Positions 24,479-56,600 of a DNA stretch of 64,000 nucleotides are shown here, one piece after another (position 1 is the stretch's first letter; each line of letters begins with the position of its first letter). This DNA is from Tubulanus polymorphus (Eukaryota > Animalia > Nemertea): the NCBI RefSeq assembly GCF_964204645.1, contig NC_134026.1, positions 13,080,050 to 13,144,049 on the forward strand, read 5' to 3'. The notes under the pieces were generated by a model, which did not search any database, was not told where the DNA came from, and saw only the letters and a program-made list of their open reading frames with translations. Position numbers and translations under genes: made by a program.

Positions 24479-24529
24479 GTCCGTACCTACTGATTTGAAC
24501 CAAAGGCAGCAACAACCACGATTTCCACG

Positions 24530-29039: not shown

Positions 29040-29380
29040 ATGATCATTTCCAGATTTGAACAACTCAATTATTCTTCCTGGGACGGAAGATGGAGAGCCC
29101 AGCCAAAAGCGATGAAAATGAGAGAAAAACAAAACAAGAAGATTACAAGGAAAACAATCAGAAGCCGGGTCAGAGATGCTGATGGCAAAAATATCATGAA
29201 GCCTCCATGCCTCATTGGTCCAAGATGTACATCTCAACTTTGCAAGAAAAGGAAGAATAGTCGCTTTTGTGATTCGTTCTCGAAGGAAAATTTGTTGGCA
29301 ATGTTTCATCACTTTTGGACAAAACTTAATTGGGATGGTCGAAAGGCCTATTTACGTGGTCTCGTGGATAAGATTATCGA
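29040..29380 (+). pseudogene. DNA-transposon ORF fragment, Sola1-like N-terminal region
   Basis: GPRCTSQLCKK...FCDSFSKE...MFHHFWTKLNWDGRKAYLRGLV pattern. Confidence 0.45.
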
Positions 29381-30961: not shown

Positions 30962-31435
30962 AGCTATATTTTCATTAGTTACTGTATCATATTATAAACA
31001 TACATTTGATAATCTATAACCCATATGTTTAATTACCCTCAATGAAACTATTTCTTTACAGGTGCAAAAGTTATTTCGAATATTAAAATATCGAATATCG
31101 GCCAACATTATCTACAACATAATTATTATTATCACCAGATAATTCTATATCAGCTGATAAATAAATACTATTCGGAACATTAAAAGTATTTAGTGTTAAT
31201 CTCAGAATTCTAACATATAAAGTTTTATTTGGATTAACATTACTAGGATCACGAGTAATTATATGATGACATCTTTCTGCTTTAATTGCACAACATATTC
31301 TAGAATTTTTTGAAGGATCTATATATTTTCCATCCACCATTTATTAAGAAAAAAAATTACTGATTTTTTTACTATGTTTACTAATCCAAAATTGATAGCA
31401 CTTACAACTGAGATTAAAAATAAAATTATATGTTC
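30962..31435 (-). pseudogene. Relic of a second, diverged Polinton-like element: end of the membrane-protein gene plus deleted major capsid gene
   Basis: YVRILRLTLNTFNVPNSIYLSADIELSGDNNNYVVDNVGRY and FEITFAPV..MGYRLSNVCL match the capsid gene at 38381-39628; the upstream sequence matches 39690-39755. Confidence 0.9.
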
Positions 31436-33828: not shown

Positions 33829-33914
33829 AGTAATAGGAAATGTGTTGTTTCATACCGGAGGTCGAAGGTCGAGACACCACTCATCACCAAGTAATTTTTT
33901 CCCTAATAAATGGG
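33829..33914 (+). repeat. Left terminal inverted repeat
   Basis: agtaataggaaatgtgttgtttcataccggaggtcgaaggtcgagacaccactcatcacc... is the near-perfect inverse of 50957-51045. Confidence 0.95.
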
Positions 33915-34234
33915 AGATAGAAAAGCATTCTTAGCAACAATAAATAACAGAATAAAACCAGCAAAAAAACAATTTGAAATAAAAAAGTTAATTGATGTTA
34001 CAAAAGAAATTGAACATAAAATATTAAAATTAGAAAAGATAAAAACTAAATATGGAGAGAAAGTATCAGCGAATTTAAGCTACTGTAATGTTAGTACATC
34101 GCGAGAATTTACAGTGTGTTTACCTGATAAATGGGTTTCATTGAGTACAGAGGAATTAAAAGATTTAGAAGGATTTAAAATAATGAAGACGGAAAAAATG
34201 AAGACGGTCATCATGATTTAGAAATTGTTGATTA
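33910..34234 (+). CDS. Small Polinton protein with TKYG...VCLP motif, unknown function
   Basis: ORF 33910-34221 begins at TAAATG inside the TIR; probable frameshift near the C-terminus. Confidence 0.65.
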
Positions 34235-34884
34235 AATAAAAAATAAAAATAATGAATATCTAGAATCCAAAATGACCTTAGTCGTTTTACGAACAACTAT
34301 AATCATGCTAGCCAAACATCTGTTACATGTTATTATAAGAGAGTACTTCATTTGAATATTGATCGATCAAACAGGTGTTGCAATTCAACGTTGTTGTTAT
34401 ATTGGATAGCTAGCAGTTATATAATAAGCGCGCAGTACATACAACACACACAGGATACATTCTCTCTCTTGTGATTAAAAGGAATATTTCAGTGTTTTTA
34501 AGGTAAGTTTTAGCAAAATTGCCCTATCCTCGACCTACAGAGTTTTCAGGGGATAAGCATCCCATTATTGAAAGGCGCCACGGGACGCTTATCCCCAGTC
34601 ATTTCTACACCCCCGCGACCCACGTCATCCGGGATCTCCTTCAATGATCAGCAGAAATCACATTAAAGGCGCCTAATGTAATTTCTACCAATCTCGAAAT
34701 TCGAAACCGACGGAGAAACCCGGAGAGTGGACGAAGGTGCATTTTCAAAATGCCTCTGCTGGCCAGAGCTACTCCAGTGCTCGAATGAATTGCCTTATAT
34801 ACTTAGCTAAAACACCTAAGTAAATGTTGTTGGTGTTTACTAAAGAAATATATGAAATTTGAAATTATAAATTATTCCGAATGA

Positions 34885-35385
34885 AAAGAATATAGGAATG
34901 AAAACTGATAAATGAATTATGGATTTTTAACTTAATTAAGATATAATTTTTAATCAAATTAGTAATCAATTATCCATGTTAATTGATTAACAAATTCAAA
35001 TTCAAATATTCATTTTAGCATCACACCCAGTGCTGCCATCTTTCAATTTAAGAATAAACTAATAATAAGAAACGACTGTAATACAATATTCAAGTAAAAA
35101 CTTCAAATTAAAATTAAAATAAATTAATAAAAATAAAGAATATAGGAATGAAAACTGATAAATGAATTATGGATTTTTAACTCAATTAAGATATAATTTT
35201 TAATCAAATAAGTAATCAATTATCCATGTTAATTGATTAACAAATTCAAATTCAAATATTCATTTTAGCATCACACCCAGTGCTGCCATCTTTCAATTTA
35301 AGAATAAACTAATAATAAGAAACGACTGTAATACAATATTCAAGTAAAAACTTCAAATTAAAATTAAAATAAATTAATAAAAATA
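34885..35385. repeat. Near-perfect 250-bp tandem duplication in the Polinton non-coding region
   Basis: tataggaatgaaaactgataaatg at 34891 and 35141, colinear throughout. Confidence 0.95.
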
Positions 35386-35410
35386 ATGAATATCTAGAAT
35401 CCGAAATGAC

Positions 35411-35869
35411 TTATCTGGACAATTTAATTGCTCCGCATAGATAGACAAAAGTAGTGTCAATTAAATTTAAAAAATTATTTTTTTGCTTTTTTTCTAAAAT
35501 ATTAATCCATTTTTTTATTATCAATTTTGGAATTTCAGAAGTATTTTCATTTTTGATAGCAGTTGTTTCAGAATTATAAATATCATGAATTTTATTTGAT
35601 TTCTTATACCAATTACACCCAATAAAAATGAATACAATTACAAATCCAACCGTAAAATATAGACATTTATCAAATATTCTATCATTAGAAGGAGTAGAAA
35701 TAACAATATTTTCACTATTTTTATTAACATTTTTATTACTTATTTTTTCTTTTACAGCTTTTTTATATTCTTGTGATTTAATTCCTAATTGCCGAGACCA
35801 TTCAATTTGTTTCTGTGATCTCGGTTTTTTCTTTACAGTTAATTCCTTCACTTCTTCCACCTTGTTCAT
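35411..35869 (-). CDS. Polinton protein with basic N-terminus and one TM helix
   Basis: 152-aa ORF, TAAATG start, hydrophobic LYFTVGFVIVFIFIGC. Confidence 0.65.
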   Translation of the reverse strand: MNKVEEVKELTVKKKPRSQKQIEWSRQLGIKSQEYKKAVKEKISNKNVNKNSENIVISTPSNDRIFDKCLYFTVGFVIVFIFIGCNWYKKSNKIHDIYNSETTAIKNENTSEIPKLIIKKWINILEKKQKNNFLNLIDTTFVYLCGAIKLSR

Positions 35870-35874
35870 TTATT

Positions 35875-36405
35875 ATAGAAATATTTTTACTTTCAATATT
35901 TGAAAATGTTATAACTCCAGTTGATAATAATGTCATAAATCCACCTAATTGAAATGATAAATATCCAATCCATTTATTTAATTCAGTCATGACTAAATAA
36001 TCATTTTTTAAATCAGCATATAATCTATTTTCATCTTGAATTGGTAGTATTTAATTACATAATTTACTATAACCTTTTACTACATTTTCTGATATCGCGT
36101 CATTAATTCTAGCTGTTCTCGCGGCTTCATAAATCTTAAATAATCTAATAATTTCATCTGAGTTCATTGTATCTAATTCATTATGTTAAATTTTTACCGA
36201 TAAAATTTTTACATTTTCCAGATGCTATTAATATTTCTAATTGATGTTTACAAAAAAGATAATATTCATAATTATTATTTGTTGTAACATTATTTAAAGC
36301 ACCATCATCTGGAGTTAATTTTGTTTCTGTTATTCCTAAATCATCTAAAGTTTTTTCAATTGGAACATCACTTTTTTTAGATTTTATTTTCTTTTCACCT
36401 CCCAT
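35875..36405 (-). pseudogene. Polinton hypothetical protein disrupted by stops/frameshift
   Basis: ORFs 36181-36405 and 35802-35990 are joined by coding-like sequence (NELDTMNSDEIIRLFKIYEAAR...); TAAATG start. Confidence 0.6.
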
Positions 36406-36437
36406 TTATATAACAAACAAATTAGTTGTGTTGTTGC

Positions 36438-36612
36438 AACTAGAATTCAACTAGAATGTAACTAGAATTCAACTAAATTAACAAGCTAGTTGAAATATTG
36501 ATGTTTTTATTTATTTCTTGTTAAATCTAGTTGATTTTTGTTCCAACTACTAATAACTAGAATTCAACTAGAATGTAACTAAAAATATACTAGATTAACA
36601 AGCTAGTTGAAT
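36438..36612. repeat. Intergenic 11-bp AACTAGAAT(TC/GT) repeats in two ~117-bp blocks
   Basis: aactagaattcaactagaatgtaact at ~36438 and ~36555, each followed by aacaagctagttgaa. Confidence 0.8.
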
Positions 36613-37221
36613 TTAAATAAATTCATATTTAAATGGGTGTTGTAATCTAAATAGTAATTTTGATCTTTTAATATTTTTCAACTTATGCATATATTCATTA
36701 TGTAAATCATGTGGAATAATATCATTTTCTTCAAGCGCATTTTTCATCGATTTTCTGTCTTTATTGTAGAATAAAACTAGAAATCTAATGTTTTCTCTAA
36801 AGTCTTTAACAATTGAATCATATTTTTGATTTAAAACACAAGTTGTTATCCTAAAATGTCTGCCAGAAAAAGCTAAATAACATAACTCACTCTCTCTAAT
36901 TTTTGAATCATGTAAATTTGCACAATCATCTATAATGAATAATGTATTTGATCCTTTATAAATATCTATTGCTATTTTAATACAATTATCTAAATTTTCT
37001 TTTACTGTTTTAGGATCTAATATAATAAATTTATTATTTCTAGTAATATTTCTATCATAAGGTTGATTAAATTCATATGTTGGACAAAATAATACTATAT
37101 TATCAAAATAGTTTTTATAAACAGTTTCTAATAAATTTAATATAAAATAAGTTTTTCCACAATTTGTAACGCCAGAAATTAACATATTATGAGGCTCAAA
37201 TATAAATAATTCCTTATTCAT
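36613..37221 (-). CDS. A32/FtsK-HerA-type genome packaging ATPase
   Basis: Walker A GVTNCGKT, Walker B LFIIDD, GRH motif, downstream Q sensor; intact 202 aa. Confidence 0.92.
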   Translation of the reverse strand: MNKELFIFEPHNMLISGVTNCGKTYFILNLLETVYKNYFDNIVLFCPTYEFNQPYDRNITRNNKFIILDPKTVKENLDNCIKIAIDIYKGSNTLFIIDDCANLHDSKIRESELCYLAFSGRHFRITTCVLNQKYDSIVKDFRENIRFLVLFYNKDRKSMKNALEENDIIPHDLHNEYMHKLKNIKRSKLLFRLQHPFKYEFI

Positions 37222-38350
37222 TTATAAATTTTTAATTTTACTTGATAATATCCATTCATTGAATTATCTGGCCATCCAACCCATTTTACTAAAGAATATT
37301 TTTTTCTTTTAATAGTTTTTGTTTTTAATACTTTTTCAATTTTATATTCTTGTTCTAGATTTTCAGTAGTTAAACTCAATTCTTCTTCATAAAAATACCC
37401 ATCAACTTCTTCACTATCTAAATCTTCTAATTTATAGACATATGGTTTTGTTGTTATTACCTTTTTTATTTTATATATTTCTCTAGTAAAATTTCGATCG
37501 TATCCTTTATCAAATATCTTTTTATACTTAGAAATTCTAACATTTTGACCAACTTTAGATTTAGGTTCACCAAAATCATCTACAAGAAATGCTCCATATA
37601 AATTATTCCAAACAATTTCAGCATTTTCAGGTTTTCTAGCATCAATAGGTTTCATTCCAATAGAAGAATGATAAGAATTATTATAACCTTCTATCAATTT
37701 TGGTAAAACATCAATCCATTTAAAAGTATTATTTGCTGTAAAATATTTCCACATTCTTGTTCTTAATGTTCTATTAAATCGTTCAACAACTGCTGCTTTT
37801 TTGTCCGATTTTGTTGAAAAATATTTAATATTATGATTGTCTAAGAGTTCATGAACAAGTGAATTATCAAATTCTTTTCCATCATCAAATTGTATTTTTT
37901 TCTGGTTTTAGTTTATCATCCGAAAGAAATTTTCTTAAAACATTTGATGTTTGTACAGCATCTTTTCTATAAAGTGGGAAGCTCCATACATAACGACTAA
38001 AAATATCAATTATATTCAATATCCACCAATAATCATCATTATCTTTCTTAACATTTTTCATATCAATTAAATCTCCTTGCCACTGTTGATCTACATAACT
38101 TACCATAGTTTTACGAATTTTATATTTTCTAACAATTTTTTTATGTGTTGTATATGTTGGTTGTTCTAACATAAATTCATTTATATCTTTATATCTAACT
38201 AAATTTTGTGGGATTATCTTATCTAATTTATCTTGTTTTACATGACGCCATATATTTTTGTTAGAAGAATAAGCAACCGAACTCTCAGGGTTGTAATATA
38301 AATTTCTTAAATATTGTTCTTTAGTATTAGAAGTTTTTTTTACCGTCCAT
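37218..38350 (-). pseudogene. Retroviral-like (RVE) integrase with C-terminal chromodomain; frameshifted at homopolymer runs
   Basis: LYYNP, QWQGDLIDM, IDIFSRY, QFDDGKEF, KAAVVERFNRTL, YHSSIGMKP, LVKWVGWP; frameshifts near 38335 and 37895. Confidence 0.93.
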
Positions 38351-38380
38351 TTATATATCCTTAATTTTAACTTTATATTT

Positions 38381-39628
38381 CTAATATTGAATACTATCTA
38401 ATTGTGAATTTACAATATTTAATTGTGCGTCAGATATAATATAAATGTGCATTTTAAAATTTAAGCTTCCTTTTTTCTTTTTCATGAATAATTGTATTCC
38501 ATCTTTAGTGTTCTGTAATTTTTTCCCAGAACCATGTAATGAATTATCCTCTGTTGTTCTAAAATCTAACCATAATGCATATCTATTACCGGTATAATAA
38601 TCAATTTGATTAATATCACAATTTTCAGATGATTTCACTTTTTCATTCATAAAATGTTTTCTAATTTCTTGCCATTGATCTATCATTCTCATTCCTTGAC
38701 AAAATATTTTATTTGCTATTCCTTCGATAGCTATTTCTACTTTTGTTATTTCAGGATTATAATAATTATCTACCTTTATTGCACCATTAGAATATGTTGC
38801 AATGGTAAAAAATATTAATATACCTTTAATAGATCTTCTTGGGAAGTTAATATTCTCATTAATTATTTCATCATTTGCATTAATAGTTACACTTTTAAAT
38901 TTATCAATATAATCATATAATAATGAAAATCCTTGATTGTATTGTGTTTGAATTGTGTTAGCAATATTTTCATTAGTTACTGTATTATATTCTAAACATA
39001 TATTCGATAATTTATAACCCATATCTTTAGCAACGCTAGATAATACAATTTCATTTACAGGAGCAAATGTTATCTCAAATATAATATCTTCTTGAATTAC
39101 ATATTTATATAAAGGTGCATTATTATTTGTCAATTCAAAATCTAATGGAATTTTATATTTGCTTCCATAAATCTTTTTAATCAAATTATCTACGTCATTA
39201 GTTACTACTGCATTATTGGCTTCAGATCTTAATTTATTTTGGTTTTCTTATTGGATACCTTGAAATATCATATTATTTCTATTTTCTTTAGTTAACCATA
39301 AATCTTTATAACGCGCAAATAAATTATAATCATCTAATGAGAAAACTGTTTCTGGTCCAATCTTTATAGTTAATTTTTTAATCAAATATCTTCCAACATT
39401 ACCGACAACATAATTATTATTATTACCAGTTACTTTTATATCGGCTGATAAATAAATACTATTTGGAACATAAAAAGTATTTTGTGTTAATCTAGGAATT
39501 CTAACATATAAAGTTTCATCGGGATTAATATTTGAAGGATTATGAGTAATTATATTATGTGATCATTCTGCTTTAATAGCATTAGATATTCTAGAAATCT
39601 TAGAAGGACTTATATAACTCGCACTCAT
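38381..39628 (-). pseudogene. Putative double-jelly-roll major capsid protein (one stop, one frameshift)
   Basis: ~415-codon beta-rich frame (NPSNINPDETLYVRIPRL, YKIPLDF, YKLSNICLEY, INENIN, YALWLDFRT, LHGSG, HIYIISDAQLNI) next to the integrase and ATPase; resembles capsid ORFs of invertebrate Polintons (from memory). Confidence 0.75.
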
Positions 39629-39648
39629 TCATTTGACAAAAAAATTAA

Positions 39649-41106
39649 TTATTTATTTTTTATTATTTTTTCTTGATATCTTTTTGATATCATATTCACT
39701 AACCCAAAAATAATAGCACTTACAACTGTAATTAAAAATAAAATAATATGTTCAGCAGCAAAGTTAATAATGTTTCCTGCAGATTTCAATATAAAACCAA
39801 CAATTGATGCAATAACTCCGGGCAATGCTGCAGCAGATTTTTTAGATATTTGCCATAAATATTTTGCAAATTTCTTTAAACCATCCTTAACTTTATCTTG
39901 TATAGAATTATTATCATTCGGGGATTTATCCGGTTTATTGGGAGTAGGAGTAGATAACAAAGAATTTGATATTGCTAAACCAATTGTTGTAAATAACATA
40001 GTTACAGCTGTTAGAATTGAAAGAATTGTGATTCCTTCTAATTTACATAATAATTTTATTCTATCTTTCAATGATATTTCAGAATTTGGTTTTATCAACA
40101 AATCTTTAAAAATAACTTTTAATCTATTAATATTATAATCATATGATTTTAATAATGATTTAATTTCTTCTTTTTGTAATTCTAAACTATCTTTTAAATT
40201 ATTAATTTCTTTTTCTAAACGTAATTCTTTTTGCCTATATTCCATTTCATCAATTACTTGACGATCAAGATCAGACTTTAATTGTTCTATTTCTTTATTT
40301 TTATCGGTTAATTCATTTTTCTAAAGTTCTAATTTTAATATCTCTTATACTTTTATTATGTGCAATTTTATCAGCTTCATTTCTTATACTAATAATTTCT
40401 CTAATTGCTTCATCAGAAAATATATTTAAATCTTCTAATTGTTGATCTGTTGCATCAATTAATCCATTCGGTAAAAGTTTTTCAATTGGAACCTTATTTG
40501 ATTCAAGTTTACTAGTTTTGGAAGTTATATTCTGTTCAGAAGTAGTTTCTGTTTCTGTTTTCTTTTTGATTATTTCAAATAATTCATTCTTTGTTTAAAT
40601 ACGTCTATATCATTATCAGTTAATTCTTGTTTTATAACATCAGTTATTACATTACTATTACTAATTCTTTTAATTCTATCTGGATCTAAAATACTCAAAG
40701 TTGATTTTGTTAATATTTTATTTTTATTATTTTTATAAGTGATATCAATATAATAATCACCTTTCAAATGATAATACCATTTACCATTATTTAAAAATTT
40801 TAATTGATCTGCTAAAGGTCCAAAGTCTTCATCATTTATATTAAGTTTAGAATTTTCAATTAAATGTTCTAATTTAGGTATTTTGTTTAAATTATCTAAA
40901 CCTTGTTTTACTAAATCTGGGTCTAAATTTTCAGGATTTAATTGTGATTCTGCATTTTTAATATAATCAGGTATATTTAAATTATTATTATGTCCTGGCT
41001 CATTACTGTCATAAAAACTTTTTTCACTAAAATCAGATTGTTGTTCATCAGTTATGCCAGGTTCATCAAAATTATCCATTCCAATATCTTCACCTTCTAC
41101 ATCCAT
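39649..41106 (-). pseudogene. Coiled-coil plus multi-TM Polinton protein, split by frameshift
   Basis: ORFs 40570-41106 and 39649-40245 with coding-like linker; hydrophobic GITILSILTAVTMLFTTIGLAI and C-terminal helices. Confidence 0.65.
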
Positions 41107-41128
41107 TTATATAATAAAAAAATTAAAA

Positions 41129-42400
41129 TTAAAAATATAATATTCCTCCTATAACAATTCCTATACAAGTTAAAGCTAATTTAGTATTTTCATGGAATTT
41201 ATTATCATTATCAGTTTTAATTATTTCATGTTGAATATTATCAGTTTCAATATTTTCTGATGTATTATAATCCGGTTTAGAATCATTATTTAATTTAATA
41301 TTCTTAGTTTTAGTTTCTGTTGATTGAATGATATTAAATGAAAAAAAAATTAATCCAAATGAATTATTTATTGTTGCAGTTTTAATTAGATTATTATAAC
41401 CAATTCTAATTCCCATCTTTAATACTAAATCATTAGAAATAATTAATAGATTAGGGCCTATACAATAATTTAGTCTTACATGAGATTTATCTAAATAATT
41501 TTGATATCTTACAATGTTTTCTAGAATAGATCTATTTTTATCATTATGAATTGAATCTTCAAATAATACTTTGAACTGTTTCTGCGCATCGAATGAAGTG
41601 TTATCATTTCCAACTATTGGTGATCTTGTTTCAACTTGCGCACCTAAAATACATATCAAATAAGTTCTAATAGATTGATTTATTCTTTGTACACCTGATT
41701 TTGTAAAACCTTCACTATTTTCTAAAATGAAATTAACCCAACCATAATTGTTTTGTTGTTGTATATTATTATAATATTTTGGTAATTCATTCCAATTTAG
41801 TGTTCTTATATCTGAATTTGTTATTATTTTTCCAAATTCTTTAGTATATAATATTCCTAATCCGCCCATTGTACCAATTTTTGCTCTAAAATCTTTATTT
41901 GAATTAATATTAAATTCATTACATATTTTATAAAACTTAGAAAAATTAATATTATTATTCAATTCTTTAAAATATTTTGAACCTGGAAAAGGACATTCTA
42001 ATTCATCTAATATTAATTTGATTTGAAAGTATGTATGAAATCTAAAAAGTGATAACATCAATGGTAAACTTGGTTTATTCAAATGATCATTCGAACTTAT
42101 TCCACATCCTGTTGTTGCGCAATAAACAGCAAAATTTAATTGGTTCTGCCAATACTTCATATTAGATTTTAATAACCATTGTTTTGCCTCATTTAAATTT
42201 TTAAAATTAATTGTATACACATGAAATATATTTTCCATCTTAACATGAAAATTATTACTTTCAGTAACATAAATAAATAAATCAATTAATGAATTTAAAA
42301 CTTCATTTCTATATGTAATATCTTTATTAAAATCTATTGCTGGAATATTATATTTAATTGATTTATTATATTGGAAAGCTTTTGGAAAACTATCTACCAT
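41129..42400 (-). CDS. 423-aa Polinton protein with C-terminal membrane anchor, unknown function
   Basis: Intact ORF, WQNQLNFAVYCATTGCGIS motif, TAAATG start. Confidence 0.8.
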   Translation of the reverse strand: MVDSFPKAFQYNKSIKYNIPAIDFNKDITYRNEVLNSLIDLFIYVTESNNFHVKMENIFHVYTINFKNLNEAKQWLLKSNMKYWQNQLNFAVYCATTGCGISSNDHLNKPSLPLMLSLFRFHTYFQIKLILDELECPFPGSKYFKELNNNINFSKFYKICNEFNINSNKDFRAKIGTMGGLGILYTKEFGKIITNSDIRTLNWNELPKYYNNIQQQNNYGWVNFILENSEGFTKSGVQRINQSIRTYLICILGAQVETRSPIVGNDNTSFDAQKQFKVLFEDSIHNDKNRSILENIVRYQNYLDKSHVRLNYCIGPNLLIISNDLVLKMGIRIGYNNLIKTATINNSFGLIFFSFNIIQSTETKTKNIKLNNDSKPDYNTSENIETDNIQHEIIKTDNDNKFHENTKLALTCIGIVIGGILYF

Positions 42401-42416
42401 TTATATAATAAAAAAA

Positions 42417-42836
42417 TTAATAATCTATTAATTCTTTTAATAATTTATCTTGTTCTTCAACTGTTATACGGCCATTTAAACTTATTATATAATCTAGTGT
42501 ATTCTTTAATTTATTAATTTCTTTTATATTAGTTTTAATTTTTTCTTTATTACTTTTTATATTTAATTTTGAACTTATACCGGTTAATACACTTGATGAT
42601 AATCCTAATACGCCAATTGATATAGCTAAAGGTGTTAATGGACTGAATATTGCTAGAAATGTTATTACATAACTAATTGTAACCGAACCACTTATAATCA
42701 AATAATATATAATTTTAGATTTTAAATATTATTTCTTTTTAACTTTTAAATCATTTTCAAATTCTAAATATATTGTTAATTTAGCTTTATTTATATCATG
42801 AGGAATGATATCAATATTATCAACTTTATCTTCCAT
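42417..42836 (-). pseudogene. Small membrane protein (probably frameshifted; real start ATG at 42836)
   Basis: ORF 42417-42701 is hydrophobic; upstream TAAATG start at 42836. Confidence 0.6.
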
Positions 42837-42855
42837 TTATTTAGCAAAAAAATTA

Positions 42856-43278
42856 CTAATTAGTAAATTTATAAGCAACAAATATAACAATAACTGTTCC
42901 GCCTAAAATCCAAATTATTTCATATTTCTGTTGTTCTTTACTTGGGGTATAATAATCTGATAATTTAGGTTTGTATAGATGTAATTTTTCTTTATTGGTT
43001 ACTGCGTTATATAAACTCATTGCATCATCAACTGATTGAAAATCTATATGTGAAATTTTCTGATCATATAATTCCTTGTTAATATAATCCATATAGTTTT
43101 GTCTTTTTTCTCTATATCCTTCTGCTGCTTTATTGTATTTCTCTAATGCTAAGTTATGTCTTTTTTGTTCTGTTAATGATCGATTTTTATCAATATGCTT
43201 AAATAAATAACCGCCGCCTGTATATGCTAAAGCGTTAACAATTGCCGATCCTATAATAGTTATAACTGCAGAAGCCAT
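42856..43278 (-). CDS. 140-aa protein with N- and C-terminal hydrophobic helices flanking a coiled coil
   Basis: Intact ORF MASAVITIIGSAIVNALAYTGG...EQKRHNLALEK; TAAATG start. Confidence 0.75.
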   Translation of the reverse strand: MASAVITIIGSAIVNALAYTGGGYLFKHIDKNRSLTEQKRHNLALEKYNKAAEGYREKRQNYMDYINKELYDQKISHIDFQSVDDAMSLYNAVTNKEKLHLYKPKLSDYYTPSKEQQKYEIIWILGGTVIVIFVAYKFTN

Positions 43279-43520
43279 TTATTTAGCAAAATAATTATGT
43301 ATATGGGAGGAATATATTTTTGTTTTTCTAAATAATCAATTGTTAAATTAGATAAAGTTACTGCTAATGTTAATTTTAAAATATCATTTATATCAAATCT
43401 ATCAACATTAACACTTCCCCTTTTGAATACTTTTTTTAATACCATTGAATAACCAACCGTTCCAACTGATAGCAATGCTCCATTATATAATCCAGTTTTT
43501 ATCCACTTATTATCACTCAT
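43260..43520 (-). CDS. Small hydrophobic Polinton protein
   Basis: 86-aa ORF, TAAATG start. Confidence 0.65.
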   Translation of the reverse strand: MSDNKWIKTGLYNGALLSVGTVGYSMVLKKVFKRGSVNVDRFDINDILKLTLAVTLSNLTIDYLEKQKYIPPIYIIILLNKWLLQL

Positions 43521-43529
43521 TTATTTATC

Positions 43530-44640
43530 AACCAGAAATTAACTTTAAAATGTAGAATTTCTGGGATAAGCTAATGTGGAATCGAAGTTTTAAGAAATTT
43601 GGGGAATTATGAGACTTGGCGATTGGGTAGATGATACAGTCTTCGACTGGTCTAATTTAAAAAAAAATTGTCAACTTGTGACCGACTTCGATTTACTTTT
43701 GCCTCTAAGCTGGTCTGCAACTTCATTGCCTCCATGGTTGAAGAAAGAGCTCTTCTGATGTCTGCTTCATCATGACTTCGAGCATATCGTGTAGCCAGCC
43801 GGCCCGGTCACGGGGCCCGGTTTGGCTGTCACTCGATATCCTAGACTTGAGTCTGTGTTGAAGTAGACATTGTCATTTAAAGAACTTATTAATGTTATTC
43901 TGTATGAATTACCCGTGTGTCTTGTATTTTGTATTTTCTTAGTTTAAAATTTGTAACTTAATTGAATTTGGGAATTTTATCCCGGAATTTCAATGTAATA
44001 AGGATCAATAAAGTATTGAATTGAATTGTCACCTTATACACATGCCATCAGTGGACGCGGAGCCGTATATGACAGCTATGCTATTATAAATTGCTAATCT
44101 CATGAAACCTGCATACCCCTAATGTCAAACATATTTTCTAAAACATTTGAATATTGAAATTATATGTTAACACGTTTTTATATAGACCGCTTGTAGCCGC
44201 CGATGAAATTCACGCCGGCCCAACTCAGATCGTAGATAGCTTCGTCATTCCACCAGCATCCCCATGACAGGGTCTGACTTTTATATCAGACTTCCAAATC
44301 GTGTATACATCCGCCATTTAACCGAATAATCTGATTTACTTATCATTTCTATTTATGCCTGCCGCTCCTGATATAATCATGCATCATTTACTATTACAAT
44401 ACGTCTTCTCATGATATTCAATGCAATATAACATTCCGACGTTCAAATAGAGGTCATTATATAATCACAGGGAGCCATTCTACATCTTTATCAATAATAT
44501 TTTGCCTAATGGCTTGTATGTGTACACATAAACCTGTGACGTTTTGCACATCGATTTGCGGTTGTCGTTTGTAAAATGACGCTGAATGGTTAGCATTGTT
44601 AAGGTTTCATTATGGTAACGTTTTATAAGGCGTCAAAAAA
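43530..44640 (+). mobile_element. Non-autonomous Helentron-like insertion, copy A, inside the Polinton
   Basis: Higher-GC 1.1-kb block homologous (inverted) to 51451-52591; AAC(A/C)AG 5' end, AGGCGTCAAAAA 3' end; inserted in an A-run. Confidence 0.75.
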
Positions 44641-44645
44641 AATTA

Positions 44646-44960
44646 CTATCTTCAAAATATTTAGTTAACTTATTTATGATTAAATCAACATTTATTTCAT
44701 TACTACTTTTATGATTATCATATATTTTGGTTTATATGTTTTTAATATCATCAATAATTCCATCTTCATTTAATTCATAATATTCTAAAGATTAAATCCA
44801 TTAATTTTTCTATATTACAATTTTCTTTATTAATCATTGATGCATTGTTAAATGATTTACTTTTTATATCAGTAATTACATCATTTAGTTTAATTCTCAT
44901 TTCTTTACCATGTTTAAAATCAAACCCAAAACATATACTCGGCCCAACAGTTATATTCAT
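44646..44960 (-). pseudogene. Small Polinton hypothetical gene
   Basis: ORF 44775-44960 with canonical T-tract/TAAATG start; coding-like sequence continues past the stop. Confidence 0.5.
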
Positions 44961-44977
44961 TTATATAGTGAAAAAAA

Positions 44978-45735
44978 TTACTCTCTACATCTTATAACTA
45001 ATTCATAAATTACAGGGAAATTATTTAAATCAATTAAGTATCCATTGTGATTTCTAATTTCTAATTTAAAATTATTAAATTTAGGAATGCATGGTTTGAA
45101 ATCACATTCTGTTAAATTATAATTTATTTGCGTTCCAAATTCTTTAACATTCTTCAATGGTAAACTGTTTAGTAAACCAGAATTACAAGTTATATCTTTA
45201 GTTGCTTCGAATGTTTTTGTATGATCGATTAAATTGAAATAAATATAAAAGTGTGTAAAAGGTATTAAGTTTGGTGTAGCATCAATATTTGTAAAAGATT
45301 TATCTGGAGGAATTCCTAACAGTTTAGCTATAGGTTTTTTACCATAAATGCATGTTTTTCAATATCAGACAACCTTATCTTTATTTTGTTAGAACTCTCA
45401 CCTTTAAAAAATCTAATATTAAACCCGGAATTATTACCTGACTTGTGCCAGGCTTTTCTATTAATTTCTTGTGCCAATGTATCTAAATTATAAAACCCCG
45501 GTTTTAAATATATATAGGCCCATTCATTTTTGTTTTTATTAAAAATTAAAAAGGCTCTATGTTCAACAGTTTTATCCGTTATATTATAAAAAGAATAACA
45601 TAAACTTATATTTACTAATCTTAAATCTACACAATTTTTATATTCCCAATCTAATTGAACTAGTAAATTATGAGATTTAGAATTTGTAAGTCTTCTAGAA
45701 TCAACAAATATTCTGTATTCTTTTAATTCACCCAT
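44978..45735 (-). pseudogene. Putative minor capsid (penton, single jelly roll) protein, frameshifted near 45330
   Basis: N-terminal IFVDSR..LVNISLCYSFYNI..PGFYN; C-terminal FKLEIRNHNGYLIDLNNFPVIYELVI, typical of Polinton/virophage pentons. Confidence 0.65.
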
Positions 45736-45803
45736 TATTTATAACATAAAAAAATTACCGCTCATCACTAAAAATTAATTTTAATAAAATTTTTCGTAAA
45801 TAA

Positions 45804-47000
45804 ATGGATGAGAAGATACCATGCGAAATTTGTGGTGAACTTCTAAGAAAAAGTAATATGGCTCGACATATGAAAAAACATGATGAAAATTATAAACCCC
45901 CTAAAATAAACTGCCCAAAATGTAATAAATTATTCTCAAGAAATTATGTTAAAAAACATTCAGAGAAGTGTAAAATTAATGGCGCAACGGCTAATGTTGA
46001 TAGTAACGAAAGTAATAGTAATTCTGTTGAAGTTAAACCTGAAATTATTTGGAAAAGACCTTTCTTATTCTATGACAAGGATAATATAAAAGATCATATC
46101 TGCGAGCCTTGTCGAAAAAAATATAACCCTGAAAATATAGAAGATTGGGAGAATCATCAATTCCGTAAAGTACATATAGATAAAATTTCTAATAAATTTG
46201 AAGCAGAATTCAATGAAAGAAAAAATAGTTTATTAGAAAAAATAAAATATGAGAAAACGTAACCAGATAATAAAGAAACAGTTGAAAAGTTAGAAAAACA
46301 ATATAATGAATTAACAAGAAAAACATATCATTGTAAATATTGTAAATTGATTATTACAACAAGTAATTCAAATCTGAATAATAGAACAATAAAACATAAA
46401 GAAAACGTAAGAAAATACCAGGAGCTTAATGAAGATCTATTACCAATAAATTATAAACAAAAATGCCCACAATGTAATTATGCGACCTTAAGGCAAGAAG
46501 GTACTGTGTTATTTTGTAATGAATGTGGATGGCAAATAAATTTATGGGGTGAAGAAAAAACTAGAGATTTTCTCATAGAACCAAAATTAAATTATCTAGA
46601 TGAAATTTTTAAAATATTTCCTGTAGAAGATCATACACCAGAATATATGCAATGGCTTGAAAAAATGAAAATGATAGAAAATAAAAATGGTGAAATAACT
46701 AAAAAAGATATTATAAAAACAAATATTCCATCAACATTGAACACAAAACAAAAGAAAATGTATTTATATTTATTATTTAACGATTATTATGAAAAACCTA
46801 AATCAACAGAAGAAGATATGGAAAATATAAAAAAAAACATTCAAACAAATATTAATGTATCATTTGGAAAATAGAATAACAGATTCAATTAATTATGAAT
46901 TCTTTTTAAATAAGATTGTAAATTATCTAAACATCGATATTATAATTCCATTTGACGAATTAACAAACAAAAAGAAACAAAGAGAGCGAGATGAAATGTG
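45804..47000 (+). pseudogene. C2H2 zinc-finger array fused to a VLTF3/A2-like late transcription factor domain; one stop, one frameshift, C-terminus cut by hAT insertion
   Basis: ORFs 45804-46262 and 46347-46874 are in the same frame; Zn ribbon CPQC-x14-CNEC; after removing one A in the run at ~46830: TFKQILMYHLENRITDSINYEFFLNKIV. Confidence 0.7.
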
Positions 47001-50000
47001 CAGGGTTCAAAGCTTCCATGACCTATCTGATTCAATGACTTTCCATGACCTTTTCAATCCCAATTCAATGACCTCTCCAACCCTAATTTCATATCTGAAA
47101 CCCCGAGGAATGACCATGAAACGACAAACTTAACTATAAAAGAACAAACGTTAAAAAGACAAATTATTAATTTGTTAGAATATTAATTTTATTTCATAAT
47201 TATATACTCATATACTTCATGGTGCAGACAAATGATTAATCTTTTATTTACATAAACCTAAACCGGTAAAGCATTGATATATCAAAGTAACATCTTAAAG
47301 TCCTTTTAGTGCTTCTTGTTTTTTATCAATAAGTTCTGAAATGTCATTAATTTCTGCACGTTTATCATTGGCCGATTTGCGGAATGACACTGATTTCGTA
47401 ATCAGTGGACGAACATCTTTTAAAGCTGTTGCCTGTTCTGCTTGCTCAATAAACTTATTTGCGGAGGTGGTGAGCGACTCGATGTCAATTTCAAGCAATT
47501 TCTTTTTTCGTTTTAATTTCTCCAATTCTTCACATTCGGCTTTACGCTTAATACCCCTAGCACTTTTTTCTGAATCAGCCTTACATTTCTCCAGATAGGC
47601 CTTGTACTTCGAATATGCCTGAGATGCGGAAAGAAGTAACTCCTTGGTAATTTGTACTTTCAGCACACCACCTACGGATCGAATGTGGTCTACAATCATT
47701 CTTTGAGCTTCATACGATTCATTAGCTAGGTTTTCAACCTCGATCTGCTTATTTACCGAAAACCCTCTCTCTACAGAAGCCTGCCCATGAGATAATAACA
47801 GCAGGTTGCTTATAACTGACCATAATTTATCAAATGATGAATTGCATTGCATATGTTTATGATAGAAAGTATCTAATCTATCTGTTTTTTTGTTGAAGCT
47901 CACAAAATCCGATTTAGTTTTTACGACTACGCTATTGATGAATTCGTCCATTTGGTTTAACACGGTATCACAATCCGAATCATCTATATGATTCGAGCTC
48001 GACAATGAACTTATTATTCTCTGGAACTGAGCGCGACTTTGGTCACAATTAGCGGCAAGCTCGTTCGGATTTAAACATACCATATTTCTAACCAAAGAAT
48101 ATTGGATCGGCGCTTTGGCTATTATTTTATCCACTAAACTGATAAGAAATTTTCGAGTGTTCATTCTCAGATCGAGAAACTGGCGCTGACTTGCTTTTCC
48201 AACTGCAATAAGTTCCTTAACTTTTGCCTCCGCGATAAATCCGATGTCGATTTTAGAATGAACGCAATAATTCGATTCCTTTTTTGTATCTATCTTGATC
48301 AACTTAGTGAGAGTATCTGCTTCCCGAATTATATCACTTTTGATGAATCGCTTCATCAGTAATCGGAGAACATTATGTATGTCTTCCGCCAAAAATGGCA
48401 GCATTGGCCTGTCCGTCTGGTAGATGGTTAAGAACGGTGTAACTGTTTTTGCAATAGATACATACGCACGCAGTCTCGGCAATACCATATCAGATGACGC
48501 TAAGTCTTTTATGTATAAATATGGTTTCGATGTCGGTATGTTAGCCTTTTTCAAAGTTTGAACGTGCTCCACAAATTTTATGATATACGGCCATAGTTCA
48601 ATCGCACGTTCTGCAGCTGGCAGGTTATCCAGCCATCTAAAACAAAAATAGAAATGTTGAGTTTAACTGCTAACATACGGCAAGGAGATAAAACAATAAT
48701 TGATAACCAGGGTAATTTGGATTGCCTAATTAAGTACATGTATTTTAATAACAACTAAAATCCAATTCACTTACCTAGTAGAGCAAAATTTATATGGAAA
48801 CTTCTGACTACCAGTGACCTCAGTAAACATTTCTCTTCTGACAGGAGCATCTTTGAACAAATAACGCAGGTTGATAAGAAGTGACTCCAAATCCCAGTCA
48901 GTAGCATGGTCGCCGGCTTTAAAGGCATTATGCATGACATGTAAGCCACAGCTGCCTATGTTCAGAATAGACTTTCGAGTATTACACATACTTGAAATTT
49001 CTTGTTGCAACAATTCATAAAATTTCCAATTCACATTTGGACCATCCATGGACAGTTGATAAAGATTGGAGTAATTGAGATCTCCAAATGTGTCCATAAA
49101 TGAATGCAGCATATCGTCTGCAGTCGCTCGTCCAATGAAGTCTGAACCGTAATACGAAGACCTTACTACATCATGGTCCCAGAACCTAATTAACACATCC
49201 AACTGTTTAGTTTGCGTACGCTGATTCAATGATTCGTCGAATAGTAACACGTATTGTTGGTCTTTGATTTTCCGTCTCATCAGATCCTTTACATGTGGCA
49301 TAATACCAAAACGAACTAGATATGCTGCTTTCTGTTGACTAAGTGAAAACATCTCGGCTATTTGACTGTCTGGAAAGCATGCCTTAAGTATGTCATTCAT
49401 TCCAGAACAGGAATTGTAACTGTGGTGATTGTTTATCATATTCCAAGCATAAATTATCTCGGATTTCAGGACAGTATCTTTTGCAATATATGAGTCCATT
49501 ATTGGCCTGCAAAATAAAAATAATAATTGTAATAACTAACATAGTTGTAATAAATTCAATTGTAAAATATTAACAATTCTGTATATTAATGATTAACTTA
49601 CCTTGATGTTTGACGATTACTTGCTGTCAAAATACTGCTTGTTGTATTACTCGAAAACATGTTAGGAATACCTCTTGTTGAATTAGCCAAGGTCATCGAT
49701 GACACATGGAGTTTACTTTTAATGTGACTTTTCAAAGCAGCCTCTCCCATATTTGCGATGCTGAAGTTCCGAAGACATTTTATACATCTGGCTTCATATT
49801 CTGATTTTGTTTTTCCTATCCAAGGACTATAATCCTCATGATTAAGCCAGGAATCTTTAAATCTACACTTTGCGGGCATACTGAATATTTCTTTAAGGAC
49901 TGAACTCTGATGGATGTTTCCTCATGCAGATGCAATACATATCTAATGAAAGGCCCAGTTTTGCTAGGCCTATTATTTAGTTTCAGAGCTATTGTAAGAT

Positions 50001-50150
50001 TAATAATTAGGAAAAAATTTTGAATGAAATATTTAATAAATTAACCATGTGAAATGCATTGTTCTAACAGACCCAGTTTATGTCATTTAGAAATTAATCA
50101 CAGTTATATATGTTATAGGTAGGCATAAGTAGAGTCTGAACACTGAAACG
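47001..50150 (-). mobile_element. hAT-superfamily DNA transposon nested in the Polinton (one end not recognisable)
   Basis: Terminus CAGGGTTC at 47001 with subterminal (T)TCCATGAC / CAATGAC repeats; transposase gene; no matching TIR/TSD found near 50150. Confidence 0.8.
47295..49879 (-). CDS. hAT transposase, 3 exons (49879-49602, 49506-48775, 48636-47295), ~783 aa, apparently intact
   Basis: Two phase-2 GT-AG introns restore the frame; N-terminal Zn finger, LLFDES, SMDGPNVN, SCGLH, TRW, QASVERGFS motifs. Confidence 0.88.
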
Positions 50151-50158
50151 CTACTGAT

Positions 50159-50961
50159 TTAACTGCTAATTACCAATTTCATTACAATTGTTATTACTGG
50201 AGATCTCGTATATTTTTTCTGTCCATCTGCTGCGTAGAATCCAATGAAGAACCATTTTCTAAAATTATATTTTGCATTTAATACATAATCTGGTACTATC
50301 TTTTCTTTAGTTGAAGTATTACTTTTCACTATTGCATGAATATAGAATTCATCACTATATTTTATAGCAAAATCTTTAGGATTATTTACATGTATTCTAT
50401 AAACTGCTGATGATTTCATAACATCCATGATTCTAAATTTTTTATGTGAATAAACTTCTTCGCAGAATTTCTTAATTCTTTCTAATAATTTTAAGTCTTG
50501 ATTGCATAAAAACCAACAATATTTATTACCCCAAACATAATTATACACACCTGCTGAACCATCGCCCATGAAAAATCCTTTGATAAAATATTATAAATAT
50601 ATTATCAATAAATTTTTATAATTTCTATATTATAAATATTATCAATAATTTCATCGAATGACATATGATTCATTCAAATTTTGATGGTGTTTTTGTGATT
50701 CGAGATGTCTATTATAATTCCTTTTTACTATAAATTCATTACAAACTTCACATTTTATTTCATCCACATTCATATCATCTAATCGTTCTATTCTTTCATT
50801 TGTATTATCTAGTTTTCAAAATCTATTACATTTTTTATAAGATTTGCAGTTTTTTCATGTCGTGATTTTTGGGATTTATCGATGTATTTTTTACAATATT
50901 GGCAATAATATTGATTTTTATTAACATTATTATTTTCTGGCTGGTGTTCATTCTCCCCCAT
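50159..50961 (-). pseudogene. Zinc-finger region followed by a two-motif LAGLIDADG endonuclease domain, degraded and truncated
   Basis: Start MGENEHQP at 50961; CQYC..H and CEVC..RHLESQKH fingers; then FIKGFFMGDGS and FFIGFYAADG about 110 aa apart. Confidence 0.65.
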
Positions 50962-51045
50962 TAATTAGGAAAAAAAATTACTTGTGGTGATGAGTGGTGT
51001 CTCGACCTTCGACCTCTGGTATGAAACAACACATTTCCTATTACT
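50957..51045 (-). repeat. Right terminal inverted repeat
   Basis: Inverse of 33829-33914; ends CCTATTACT, followed by TSD CGCGTT. Confidence 0.95.
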
Positions 51046-51450: not shown

Positions 51451-52591
51451 TTTTTTGATGCCTTATAAAACGTTACCATTATGAAACCTAAACAATGTTA
51501 ACCATTCAGCGTCATTTTACAAACGACAACCGTAAATCGATGTGCAAAACGTCACAGGTTTATGTGTACACATACAAGCTATTTGGCAAAATATTATTGA
51601 TAAAGATGTAGAATGGCTCCCTGTGATTATATAATGACGTCTATTTGAACGTCGAAATGTTATATTGCATTGAATATCATGAGAAGACGTATTGTAATAG
51701 TAAAGGATGTATGATTATATCAGTAGCGGCAGGCATAAATAGAAATGATAAGTAAATCGGACTATTCGGTTAAATGGCGGATGTATACACGATTTGGAAG
51801 TCCGATATAAAAGTCAGACCCTGACATGGGGATGCTAGTGGAATGACGAAGCTATCTACGATCTGAGTAGGGCCGGCGTGAATTTCATCGGTGGCTACAA
51901 GCGGTCTATATAAAAACGTGTTAACATATAATTTCAATATTCAAATGTTTTAGAAAATATGTTCGATATAAGGGGTATGCACGTTTCATGAGATTAGCAA
52001 TTTATAATAGCATAGCTGTCATATACGGCTCCGCGTCCATTGATGGCATGTGTATAAGGTGACAATTCAATTCAATACTTTATTGATCCTTATTACATTG
52101 AAATTCCGGGATAAAATTTAAAAAACTTACAAATCTTAAAATAAGAAAATACAAAATACAAGACACACGGTTAATTCATTTAGAATAACATGAATAAGTT
52201 CTTTAAATGACAATGTCTACTTCAACCCAGACTCAAGTCTAGGATATCGAGTGACAGCCAAACCGGGCCCCAGGACCGGGCCGGCTGGCTACACGATATG
52301 CTCAACGTCATGATGAAGCAAACATCCAAAGAACTCTTTCTTCAACCATGGAGGCAATGAAGTTGCAGACCAGCTTAGAGGCAAAAGTGAATCGAAGTCG
52401 GTCACAAGTTGACAATTTTTTTAAAATTAGACCAGTTGAAGACTGTATCATCTACCCAATCGCCAAATCTCATAATTCCCTAATTTCTTAAAACTTCGAT
52501 TTCAAATTTGCAATTCCACATTAGCTTCTCACAGAAATTCTACATTTCTTCGCAGGCGTCAAATAATTGATTAAAGTTAATTTTCTTGTTT
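51451..52591 (-). mobile_element. Non-autonomous Helentron-like insertion, copy B
   Basis: Inverted homolog of 43530-44640 with substitutions and indels; keeps the 5' subterminal IR (aggcgtcaa at ~52555) that copy A lost. Confidence 0.75.
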
Positions 52592-53624: not shown

Positions 53625-56600
53625 TGTCCTGAATTGTGTTTGGCTTATGTGTATGTGGTAATAACTCTGGATTTGGCCTTTATTTCTGTAAGCCTCCTTC
53701 ATGCCTGACCAGGCATTATATTGTGTATGTTAAGTCGTTGAATAAAGTTGAGTCAGTGTTGTACAGAAAATCATATGGGTTAGTTCGTTCCTATCTATAT
53801 ATATTCCTGCAGAATTTAGGAAATTGGTCCCTCGAGCCTCGAGAACGATGTCAGAGAATAGAAAGCGTGGTGCCCAACTGGGCCATGTTAAAAGGCTTAC
53901 TGATCAAGCAGACGTTCTGGTTAACAGTCAAACCTCGCAAAAACCAGATTTGGAGAAACTACAGAGATTATGCTCTCAGATCAGTGAGAAATTGGCCATC
54001 GTCAGTGACTTAGGCGATGATATTCTGTCAAGTATAGCAGATGACACAACTTACTATTCGAAGGCAACCGAATACGAGATCAAGCTGGAACAATATCGCG
54101 ATCGGATTTTATATTATAATCAGTACCTGAAACGAACTGATCCCGTGTCAGCATCTACCAAGGCTGAACGTCCATCATCAAATCTACCAAAACTTTCATT
54201 ACCAAGATTCAGTGGCAATATCATGGATTGGCAGAATTTCTACGATTCTTTCTGCGCAGCAGTACACAATGTTAAATCTGTTCCGGTTATTCAGAGATTC
54301 CAATATTTGAAGTCGTTATAGGACGATGAAGCAGAATTAAGCATCAGTGGGTTGTCGTTGACGGAATCAAATTATCACACTGCTATGGACATTTTGCATT
54401 CACGATTTGCTCAACCGCATAAGATCATAGACGCCCATATGCAGGCCATCGTTGCATTGAACATTCCGAGTTACTCTGCCTTCGAGTCTTCGTCAATTTC
54501 GCAGGGTCGAATCACATATTCGATCTTTGATAGCTGCCGGTCGCGATGAATCGTGTTTAGGAGATATGCTCATGTCAGTTTTACAGAGTAAACTCCCATC
54601 CAAAATCCGAAAGAATATGTTCGTGAACATGGTAATACATTTTTCACGTTAAAGCAAATTCGTAAATTTATAGCCAAGGAGGTAAATGTCTTAGAAGCAG
54701 GTGTGGGAAGTGAAGATAATTTACACTCCACAATTCTGTTCGCGAGTACAACTGGTCAAGATCGTCATATCGGTTATCGTAAATCGAGCGCATCACAGAA
54801 AGCGAATACAGCAAGGCAGAAATCATGTGTTTTTTGGAAGAGTAATGACCATTTTTCGAGCGACTGTAGAACAGTGTCCACTTATGGCGACCGAATAGCG
54901 TTCATTAAAGCCGAAAATCTGTGTTTCAACTGTTTTGGTCATCATCGTATTGAAGATTGTAGATCCCGTTATTCATGCAAAAAATGTAAGTGCCGACATC
55001 ATATTAGCATATGTCCACCGACTAAACCCGAGAAGACCACCGTGGTAGCACTTTCAGAATGTGATAAGGCGAAGACAATCGCAGCTCAGCTAACGGATGG
55101 AAATACAGCTTAAAGAGGTCTTTGGTGGCTTGACCCCTACGTCACAACGAGATTAAGTCTAGCTAATAAACCGCGATCGTGCCTATTTCTGGTGGAAATG
55201 CTTCAAGGGACTCTACCGTTTTGCAAGAAGATGGTGCGCAGCGGACCTTTATTTGTCAGTCGGTTGTTGCTGAACTCGGATTAGAGCCAGTTAGTAAGGA
55301 AAAGATTAGTTTGTCTAATATGGGACTAGTGAGAAAAAAGTTACTACATTAGATAAAGTGAAGATCGAAATTCGTTGTACCGATAACAGCGTTATATCGT
55401 TGGAAGCACTCGTGATCCCGAATATTTCAGTGCCTATTCGTGTTTCCGCGAGGAAAAAATTAGAACACTATGACTATTTGCGAGGATTGAAATTAGCTCA
55501 CCCCTTAAACCGCGACGACTTGTTGCGAGGATTGAAATTAGCTCACTTCTTAAACCGCGACGACTTGTTTGACATTACGTTACTGATCGGATCGGACTAC
55601 TATTATGAATTTGTTATGGGTGACCAGATTCGCGATCCGAATAATGAAGGCCCGACCGCCGTTGCAACTAAACTTGGTTACGTAGTTTCTGGTCCGGTCA
55701 CCTCTACGGAACGTGAAGATGCGTCGATATTCAACACGTTAGTCGATCAGCGCGTAGATCTTGATCTTCGTAGATTTTGGGACTTAGAGACAATAGGAAT
55801 TAAAGCGCCAATGGATCGACGGGCAGATGAAACTGGATTATTGTGAATCATCTGTGAACTTTGACCTTGTCGAAAATCGCTATGTGGTGCACTTGCCGTG
55901 GAAAGCGGAGCACTCATTGTTGGACAATAACTTCGTGTGTAAGCGTAGAACTATATTGACTATTCATCGGTTGGTAAAAAGCGATACTTTGTCGGATTAC
56001 AATCGACTTATTGCCGAACAAGAAAATCGGGGCTTCATCGAACGAGTTACAGATGCAAAAGTGTCGGACATAAATTCACACTATTTACCACACCACCCCG
56101 TCTATCGTCCGTCGAAGAACACACCTTTACGAATCGTCTATGATTGTAGCTGTAAGTCGCCATAGAATTCTGTTAGTTTAAACGATTGTCTGGACCAGGG
56201 TCCTCGTATGCAAAACGACATCACAGCGATATTGATGCGTTTTCGTCTACACAGTATAGCTATAACATCAGACATTGAGAAAGCGTTCTTGCAAATTTTG
56301 TTGCCAGAAGCAGACAGGAATTTTACGTGTTTTCTGTGGCTCAAAGATTCGAATGATCCTACTAGCGAGTTGATTACGTATAGATTCAGAGTAGTTTTGT
56401 TCGGAGCCAGCAGTTCGCCGTTTATATTAAATGCAACTATCTATAAACCTTTGATGCTACACTCATCACGTATATCTGATATCATCATGAAGAATATTTA
56501 CGTGGATAACGTTATAGTTTCGGTCTGGGATCGATCTATGGCCGAAAAGTTTTACGTCAAGTCTCGTTCAGTAATGAGTGAAGGAGGATTCAACCTACGG

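Follow-up and report, generated by a model that had tools for sequence, protein, structure and literature searches.

A zinc-finger/VLTF3 fusion gene and a poxvirus-late-type start motif in an integrated animal Polinton

Homologues of the poxviral late factor VLTF3 have been described from several Polinton-class elements, namely polintoviruses of stony corals (PMC11131425, citing Krupovic and Koonin 2016), MELD viruses (PMC8502044) and Zephyrvirus PLVs (10.64898/2026.06.19.733378), and the presence of VLTF3 in a Polinton is therefore not new in itself (PMC11131425). In the sections of these descriptions that were consulted neither a finger fusion nor a promoter motif is mentioned, and one supplement of PMC11131425 contains no VLTF3 term. 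Gene flow from relatives of poxviruses to Polintons is likewise described (10.1101/2024.03.23.586382), as is a PLV that shares its helper's early promoter (10.1101/2022.07.28.501842). In the mavirus/CroV system an integrated provirophage, with a protist host and a mimivirid helper, carries gene promoters that copy the late promoter of the helper, and activation by the helper's late factor has been proposed (10.1101/068312), whereas the element described here carries a late factor of its own. Polinton-like parasites of poxviruses in animals are known from entomopoxvirus occlusion bodies, in lineages highly diverged from known PLVs, and the words 'promoter', 'TAAAT' and 'VLTF' have no occurrence in that text (PMC11296320).

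The window analysed here, a stretch of 64,000 nucleotides from the nemertean Tubulanus polymorphus, contains an integrated Polinton (Table 1), as the earlier note on this DNA had assumed. The terminal inverted repeats (33829-33917 and 50954-51045, 92% identical) start with AGT, and these repeats, the 6-bp duplication, the capsid, the A32 ATPase and the rve integrase are the features of group-2 Mavericks/Polintons, the group being assigned from gene content rather than from a tree. The group-2 gene set is described as occurring almost always in animal genomes (10.64898/2026.06.19.733378) and, taken with the BEL/Pao retrotransposon domains on either side of the element, suggests an invertebrate host. 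Of a presumed protein-primed family-B polymerase only a finger-bearing 5' end remains, and neither a capping gene nor, in a difference from chordopoxviruses, an RNA polymerase gene is present among the ORFs seen. The two polymerase-type fingers are followed by a LAGLIDADG-like stretch (50159-50590, minus strand, E 0.004) that has no counterpart in the intact relative described below. This stretch could be an insert, of intein type or from a homing endonuclease, or else a separate gene for a finger-nuclease.

Several rearrangements surround these genes. A 250-bp tandem duplication (34885-35384, 99% identity) lies within the Polinton, and one of two oppositely oriented copies of a 1.1-kb high-copy repeat (43548-44640 and 51451-52547; depth up to ~2500 in read run X5) interrupts it between two genes. 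This repeat was considered as a terminus of the element and rejected, being high-copy and GC-richer, and also because the genes on its two sides are direct neighbours in the relative. Some 8 kb from the main element lies a further Polinton capsid region (30962-31459), fragmentary and 76-84% identical to that element, and decayed BEL/Pao-type retrotransposons lie on either side of the Polinton (24494-29447 and 53633-59013).

Table 1. Features of the Polinton and of its fusion gene (positions in the window).
Feature	Position	Strand	Basis and remarks
Integrated Polinton (Maverick) of group 2; 17.2 kb with its later insertions	33829..51045		ends AGTAATAGG...CCTATTACT; 6-bp duplication CGCGTT on both sides
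A32-like packaging ATPase	36613..37221	-	Pox_A32, E 2.6e-13
Retroviral-type integrase, broken	37218..38397	-	rve, E 5.6e-5; compared with relative
Major capsid protein, broken	38381..39625	-	Capsid_N, E 0.002; 73% to the relative's 415-aa ORF
Putative minor capsid gene, divergent neighbour of the fusion gene	44978..45735	-	presumptive label; no family match
Poxvirus-late-type start motif of the fusion gene	45785..45806	+	A at -18, T-tract -14 to -10, ATAAATG; same in relative, 14/14
Zinc-finger/VLTF3 fusion gene, pseudogenised, 3' end cut	45804..47000	+	ORFs, Pfam, intact relative, X5 reads
Finger 1 (CX2CX11HX3H) and finger 2 (CX2CX11HX3C)	45822..45974	+	Pfam, pattern; conserved in P0004
Finger 3 (CX2CX14HX5H)	46101..46175	+	pattern; conserved in P0004
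Premature stop, private to the window copy	46260..46262	+	other letter at the stop codon in 195/206 X5 reads
Finger 4, of U1-like type; degenerate in the window copy, intact (CX2CX11HX5H) in P0004	46332..46397	+	zf-U1, E 6.5e-4
C4 zinc ribbon, start of the VLTF3/A2 module	46464..46526	+	four cysteines, spacing to motif
Helical VLTF3 domain, split by frameshift (A-run 46829-46837), last helix lost	46581..46998	+	Pfam, P0004, profiles, model
Inserted DNA-transposon-like element, adjacent Polinton sequence lost	47001..50145		ends CAGGGTTC / CAGTGTTC; no target duplication
5' end of convergent gene: two fingers, then LAGLIDADG-like stretch	50159..50961	-	fingers match N-terminus of the relative's polymerase

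The fusion gene opens with an ATG at 45804 and is divided into three reading-frame pieces, 45804-46262 (152 aa), 46263-46874 (203 aa) and 46831-47133 (100 aa). The in-frame stop and the frameshift reported in the earlier note are both present in the sequence, the frame change falling inside the A-run, and the motifs that it quoted are spread across the three pieces. Stop and frameshift are lesions of the window copy, because most reads of run X5 (organism A) lack them, the length of the A-run differing from that of the window in 150 of 263 reads. The end of the gene, placed near 47000, did not hold up, and a third break had been overlooked there: a 3.1-kb insertion at 47001 removes the 3' end, as judged from a step to higher GC at its start, from 181 X5 reads and the contigs of three other runs that carry a different continuation at 47000, and from the intact relative, which extends ~190 aa past the cut. 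With the insertion the fusion gene lost its last VLTF3 helix and its tail, and the greater part of the convergent neighbour gene disappeared. The insertion has short inverted ends and ORFs that lack a Pfam match, and is presumably a transposon. Compared with Pfam, piece 1 resembles zf-C2H2 below the cut-off (E 7e-5), piece 2 gives weak U1-finger and ribbon matches, and residues 4-58 of piece 3 match Pox_VLTF3 with 20.2 bits (E 5e-4; cut-off 25), while pieces 2 and 3 read through with X give no Pox_VLTF3 match.

A search of 1.84 billion protein representatives returned three matches, one of which is a true homologue (P0004, 697 aa, E 1.9e-18), an intact natural protein whose cluster holds three near-identical records (P0004 and two members); P0005 and P0006 were discounted, since they probably match the zinc ribbon by chance. 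P0004 aligns, in the order found in the window, with piece 1 (50% identity over 56 aa, and 41% over a stretch of 75 aa), with piece 2 (43% over 179 aa) and with piece 3 (61% over 56 aa), and spans the fingers and the C-terminal domain in one ORF. The fusion reconstructed in the earlier note is thus real, and the window gene is, on this comparison, a decayed copy of a true one-piece gene. Word-based searches found no homologue among 1657 candidates or among 88 shorter proteins, and P0004 itself was the sole homologue among 3539 candidates; ATPase, P0004 and capsid queries detected no close relative in viral_contigs, and a motif search of genome_contigs was without a match.

The two loci that encode the relative, L001 and L002, carry the same Polinton module together with a deoxynucleoside kinase gene and a 1336-aa polymerase-like ORF, which in L001 shows family-B motifs (by eye) and is related to pPolB-type ORFs elsewhere but has no Pfam polymerase match. 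In L002 the kinase gene (9287-9928, minus strand, dNK, E 2e-31) and the fusion gene share one short intergenic region; a kinase gene is absent from the element of the window. The divergent orientation of the fusion gene relative to the structural block, to which the earlier note had drawn attention, is true of the window and is not conserved, the relative's gene lying downstream of the block, in the same direction and at the other end of the block. Its convergence with the finger-bearing polymerase-type gene is conserved between the two.

In the X5 reads the depth is 210-315 on the fusion gene, up to ~630 on its neighbouring gene and 23-30 on the insertion, and the lowest bin between 44700 and 64000 has a depth of 9, although this bin need not be single-copy. 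We infer a family of tens of copies, since the depth on the gene far exceeds that on the insertion and in the lowest bin; the reads and contigs are too short to show a whole intact copy in organism A.

The fusion protein resembles chordopoxvirus A2/VLTF3 (PF04947) in that a C4 ribbon is followed by a helical domain, the two proteins being colinear over 174 columns. It differs from A2 in the four fingers added in front and in a tail of ~180 aa, and the identity to pox A2 is ~20%. The C-terminal 98 residues of the relative match Pox_VLTF3 above the 25-bit cut-off (28 bits, E 2.2e-6), while full-length P0004 gives no Pox_VLTF3 match. The distance from ribbon to motif, ~140 aa in the window and in P0004, compares with 144 in chordopox A2 and ~157 in megavirus-type VLTF3. 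The homology, colinearity and similar spacing that the earlier note had proposed are supported by these comparisons, and the Pfam A2L zinc-ribbon profile, suggested as a further check, matched neither the window pieces nor the relative. In the Atlas, P0004 residues 325-520 are placed with VLTF3 clusters (0.93; 198 of 256 features in common).

The reference sets for finer comparison, 120 megavirus-type loci and 38 chordopox-type A2 genes, were fetched by motif, their group labels being assigned in this analysis from motif and contig size. By hhalign, the family aligns with a profile of 21 chordopox A2 sequences at 93% (E 3e-7, 174 columns) and with one of 40 megavirus-type VLTF3 sequences at 27% (77 columns), the pox and megavirus-type profiles themselves aligning at 92%; a megavirus-type profile of 73 cores did not detect the family. 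The pox profile scores 25.9 bits against 11.9 for the best of 500 shuffles. Most of this HMM score is carried by a 10-residue motif that also served to fetch the pox set: when it is masked, the score falls from 26.9 to 5.7 bits, which was reached by 4 of 985 scored shuffles. Piece 2 of the window alone scores at chance level against the pox profile (73/985 shuffles). In a tree of 20 of the 40 megavirus-type sequences, excluding the window sequence, entomopoxviruses and asfarviruses, the grouping with pox has support 0 and the branches are very long. As far as profile comparison goes, the C-terminal domain looks nearer to chordopoxvirus A2 than to megavirus-type VLTF3.

A model of the relative's domain built on a 62-row VLTF3 alignment reached pLDDT 82. 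Its best fold match is cowpox VLTF3 (TM 0.79), followed by entomopoxvirus VLTF3, a result that is partly circular because of the alignment on which the model was built. Among solved structures it comes closest to TFIIB, at the first cyclin repeat (rmsd 2.9 over 90-92 aligned residues; Z 5.6-6.3, too low for the tool to be trusted on helical folds), and cyclin-fold proteins fill 36 of the best 50 rows (VIA), as read from row titles and chain names. Foldseek found no similar PDB entry for the model down to E 0.001, and neither the family nor the VLTF3 profiles matched a solved structure by sequence, the TFIIB ribbon reaching E 0.085 against the megavirus-type VLTF3 profile. No solved structure of VLTF3 itself was found in the structure searches, and a published structural assignment of A2 may exist. 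The predicted layout of the fusion protein, an N-terminal zinc ribbon and a cyclin-like helical repeat, would be that of TFIIB, Brf and TFB, from which it differs in having one repeat only and no significant sequence match. Because the predicted cyclin-like fold stands behind a ribbon, the model suggests an initiation factor that recruits a polymerase.

The fingers in front of this module were described in the earlier note as DNA-binding, an attribution that their form does not favour. Compared with a classical C2H2 array (CX2CX12HX3H, with a TGEKP-type linker), the four have 11- or 14-residue spacing, one is of C2HC type, no such linker is present, and two end in HX5H like U1/matrin fingers; to judge by these patterns they are not a classical DNA-reading array. 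Fingers of the same pattern precede the ribbon in none of 65 complete megavirus-type and none of 38 pox proteins, and no finger-fused VLTF3 was found described in the literature searched, which covers few subscription journals. With the two N-terminal fingers of the relative's polymerase they have in common the 11-residue spacing and a degree of sequence similarity, and on this ground they were probably shuffled within the element. In the Atlas, fingers 3 and 4 have weak matches (best 0.81), and a single-sequence model of P0007 reached pLDDT 37.

The likeness to the polymerase fingers would also suit a captured passenger that has no role in transcription, that is, a chance fusion of fingers to a VLTF3 remnant, or a protein repurposed for packaging or replication. 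In its favour are also the rarity of the family in databases and 320 X5 reads that depart from the window sequence at 45736, a sign of another subfamily in which the neighbour at this place differs. Such an origin is nevertheless very improbable, as two lineages only 41-61% identical both retain all the fingers and the entire VLTF3 module, and the family has reached tens of copies with a promoter motif unseen in the other Polintons compared.

This motif is the second distinctive feature of the element. In L001 and L002, ATAA at -4 to -1, A at -18 and T at -13 occur at 14 of 14 chosen gene starts, small overlapping antisense ORFs and one internal ATG of the integrase being left out of the choice. 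Without selection, TAAATG begins 13 of the 14 ORFs of at least 100 aa, compared with 39 of 636 other ATGs. The window, despite its decay, keeps TAAATG at 11 of 13 tested starts and the full motif at seven, that of the fusion gene included and that of the capsid gene excluded. Among 49 other pPolB (Polinton-type) loci, found by polymerase motif, some of them overlapping and many of their ORFs not true genes, TAAATG begins 8 of 296 ORFs and the full motif none; in L236, which has the same structural module, the count is 0/29. Megavirus-type loci have TAAATG at 11 of 154 starts (2/50 in an AT-rich subset) and chordopox loci at 71 of 221. In one chordopox gene family, with products of 75 aa, TAAATG is preceded by TTT at -14 to -12, spaced as in the element. 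An origin of TAAATG in stop-start overlap was rejected, only the ATPase start directly following a stop. At 33910-34221 and at 50961, the terminal inverted repeats both end in the late-type start motif, and each end therefore begins a gene, the left one being a 103-aa ORF of no known family.

The uniform motif of the element matches the poxvirus late type. In vaccinia, TAAAT is described as the intermediate and late initiator, where the RNA gains a poly(A) leader through slippage of the polymerase (PMC6211774). The relative has T at -3 in all 14 starts. This letter is the opposite of the animal Kozak context and is disfavoured by animal ribosomes, and so fits an initiator that acts at the level of DNA; it would do no harm to an RNA that begins within the A's. 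The new finding here is the T-tract and ATAAATG at fixed spacing at all 14 gene starts of the relative, the promoter evidence as a whole coming from two lineages only, and no description of TAAATG or of a late poxvirus promoter in animal Polintons was found in the literature searched, judged by titles.

The same signals might be read by the host. In a nuclear, helper-free scheme, finger-VLTF3 would bind the conserved upstream motif and, as a specificity factor in the manner of TFIIB, bring in RNA polymerase II of the host, which would suit an element that integrates in host chromosomes, the predicted TFIIB-like layout, and the T/A step at -19/-18, which resembles the metazoan Pol II initiator. 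Furthermore, mriyaviruses (PMC11253617) and ariadnaviruses (10.64898/2026.08.29.747986), which are without an RNA polymerase and are thought to replicate in the nucleus, keep VLTF3, so that VLTF3 alone implies no helper. Transcription by Pol II is unlikely all the same, because it leaves unexplained the invariant TAA before every ATG, with its T at -3, and the spacing match to the chordopox gene family, and because in L223, a Polinton whose megavirus-like VLTF3 stands alone, just 1 of 5 ORFs begins with TAAATG.

Building on the fusion seen here, on its homology to VLTF3 and greater resemblance to A2, and on a start motif absent from the other Polintons compared, we consider transcription by a putative helper, in whatever form, to be probable, and we lean, at slightly better than even chances, towards a form in which the Polinton is transcribed by the helper's poxvirus-type polymerase and its own finger-VLTF3 favours element promoters. 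The earlier proposal that the fusion protein redirects the RNA polymerase of a helper gains independent support from the uniform start motif, the helper itself staying hypothetical. Before infection of the cell by a poxvirus-like virus the element would be silent; the late machinery of that virus would subsequently transcribe every gene of the element, the fusion gene included. Because the VLTF3 gene has the same start motif, the helper's own late factors must act first and would fire this gene, the product of which would then be an amplifier, joining the initiation complex and biasing it towards element promoters. Transcripts would begin in TAAAT and, like those of vaccinia, carry a poly(A) leader produced by slippage, and the fingers would form a tether to element DNA, RNA or protein. 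The helper model requires an integrated nuclear copy to meet a cytoplasmic polymerase; for mavirus, where the helper's late promoter is used, a helper factor entering the nucleus was proposed (10.1101/068312).

Dependence on a helper could also take a hostile form, in which the protein, a decoy or dominant-negative, would bind the polymerase or the late factors of the helper and thereby suppress its late genes, protecting the host or winning shared resources. The promoter evidence is the same for this scheme, the low identity to pox A2 and the large added N- and C-terminal parts would agree with it, and endogenous mavirus is described as an antiviral defence (10.1101/068312). We regard a decoy as quite unlikely, in that a general block would silence the element's own genes, which have the same late-type motif, and that the ribbon cysteines and the C-terminal motifs are retained.

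Under the preferred reading of a helper-transcribed element with its own promoter-biasing factor, the Polinton might tentatively be called an endogenous 'poxvirus virophage', present in tens of copies in an animal genome, with a captured, finger-armed late factor and every gene set under a late promoter, a description that we hold at somewhat less than even chances. If true, it would imply an undiscovered poxvirus-like virus of an invertebrate group, and VLTF3 would point to a TFIIB-like role for a core giant-virus gene. The expression of animal Polintons and their need for a helper virus are a long-open question, which the combination of a uniform late promoter with an element's own late factor makes directly testable; the finding also predicts the class of the helper and offers a compact system for VLTF3 function.

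The VLTF3 of L223 is a stand-alone protein of 174 aa that is megavirus-like (89% versus 1% for pox) and does not align with the finger-VLTF3 family, which hints at separate captures of the two genes. It is encoded (9668-10192) directly behind a pPolB-type gene on a Polinton contig filed under an archaeal MAG, and its cluster has 16 members, some of them on contigs near 1 Mb. In all, 37 stretches of Polinton-type polymerase DNA (L212-L248) occur in bacterial and archaeal MAGs, where they are probably eukaryotic contamination.
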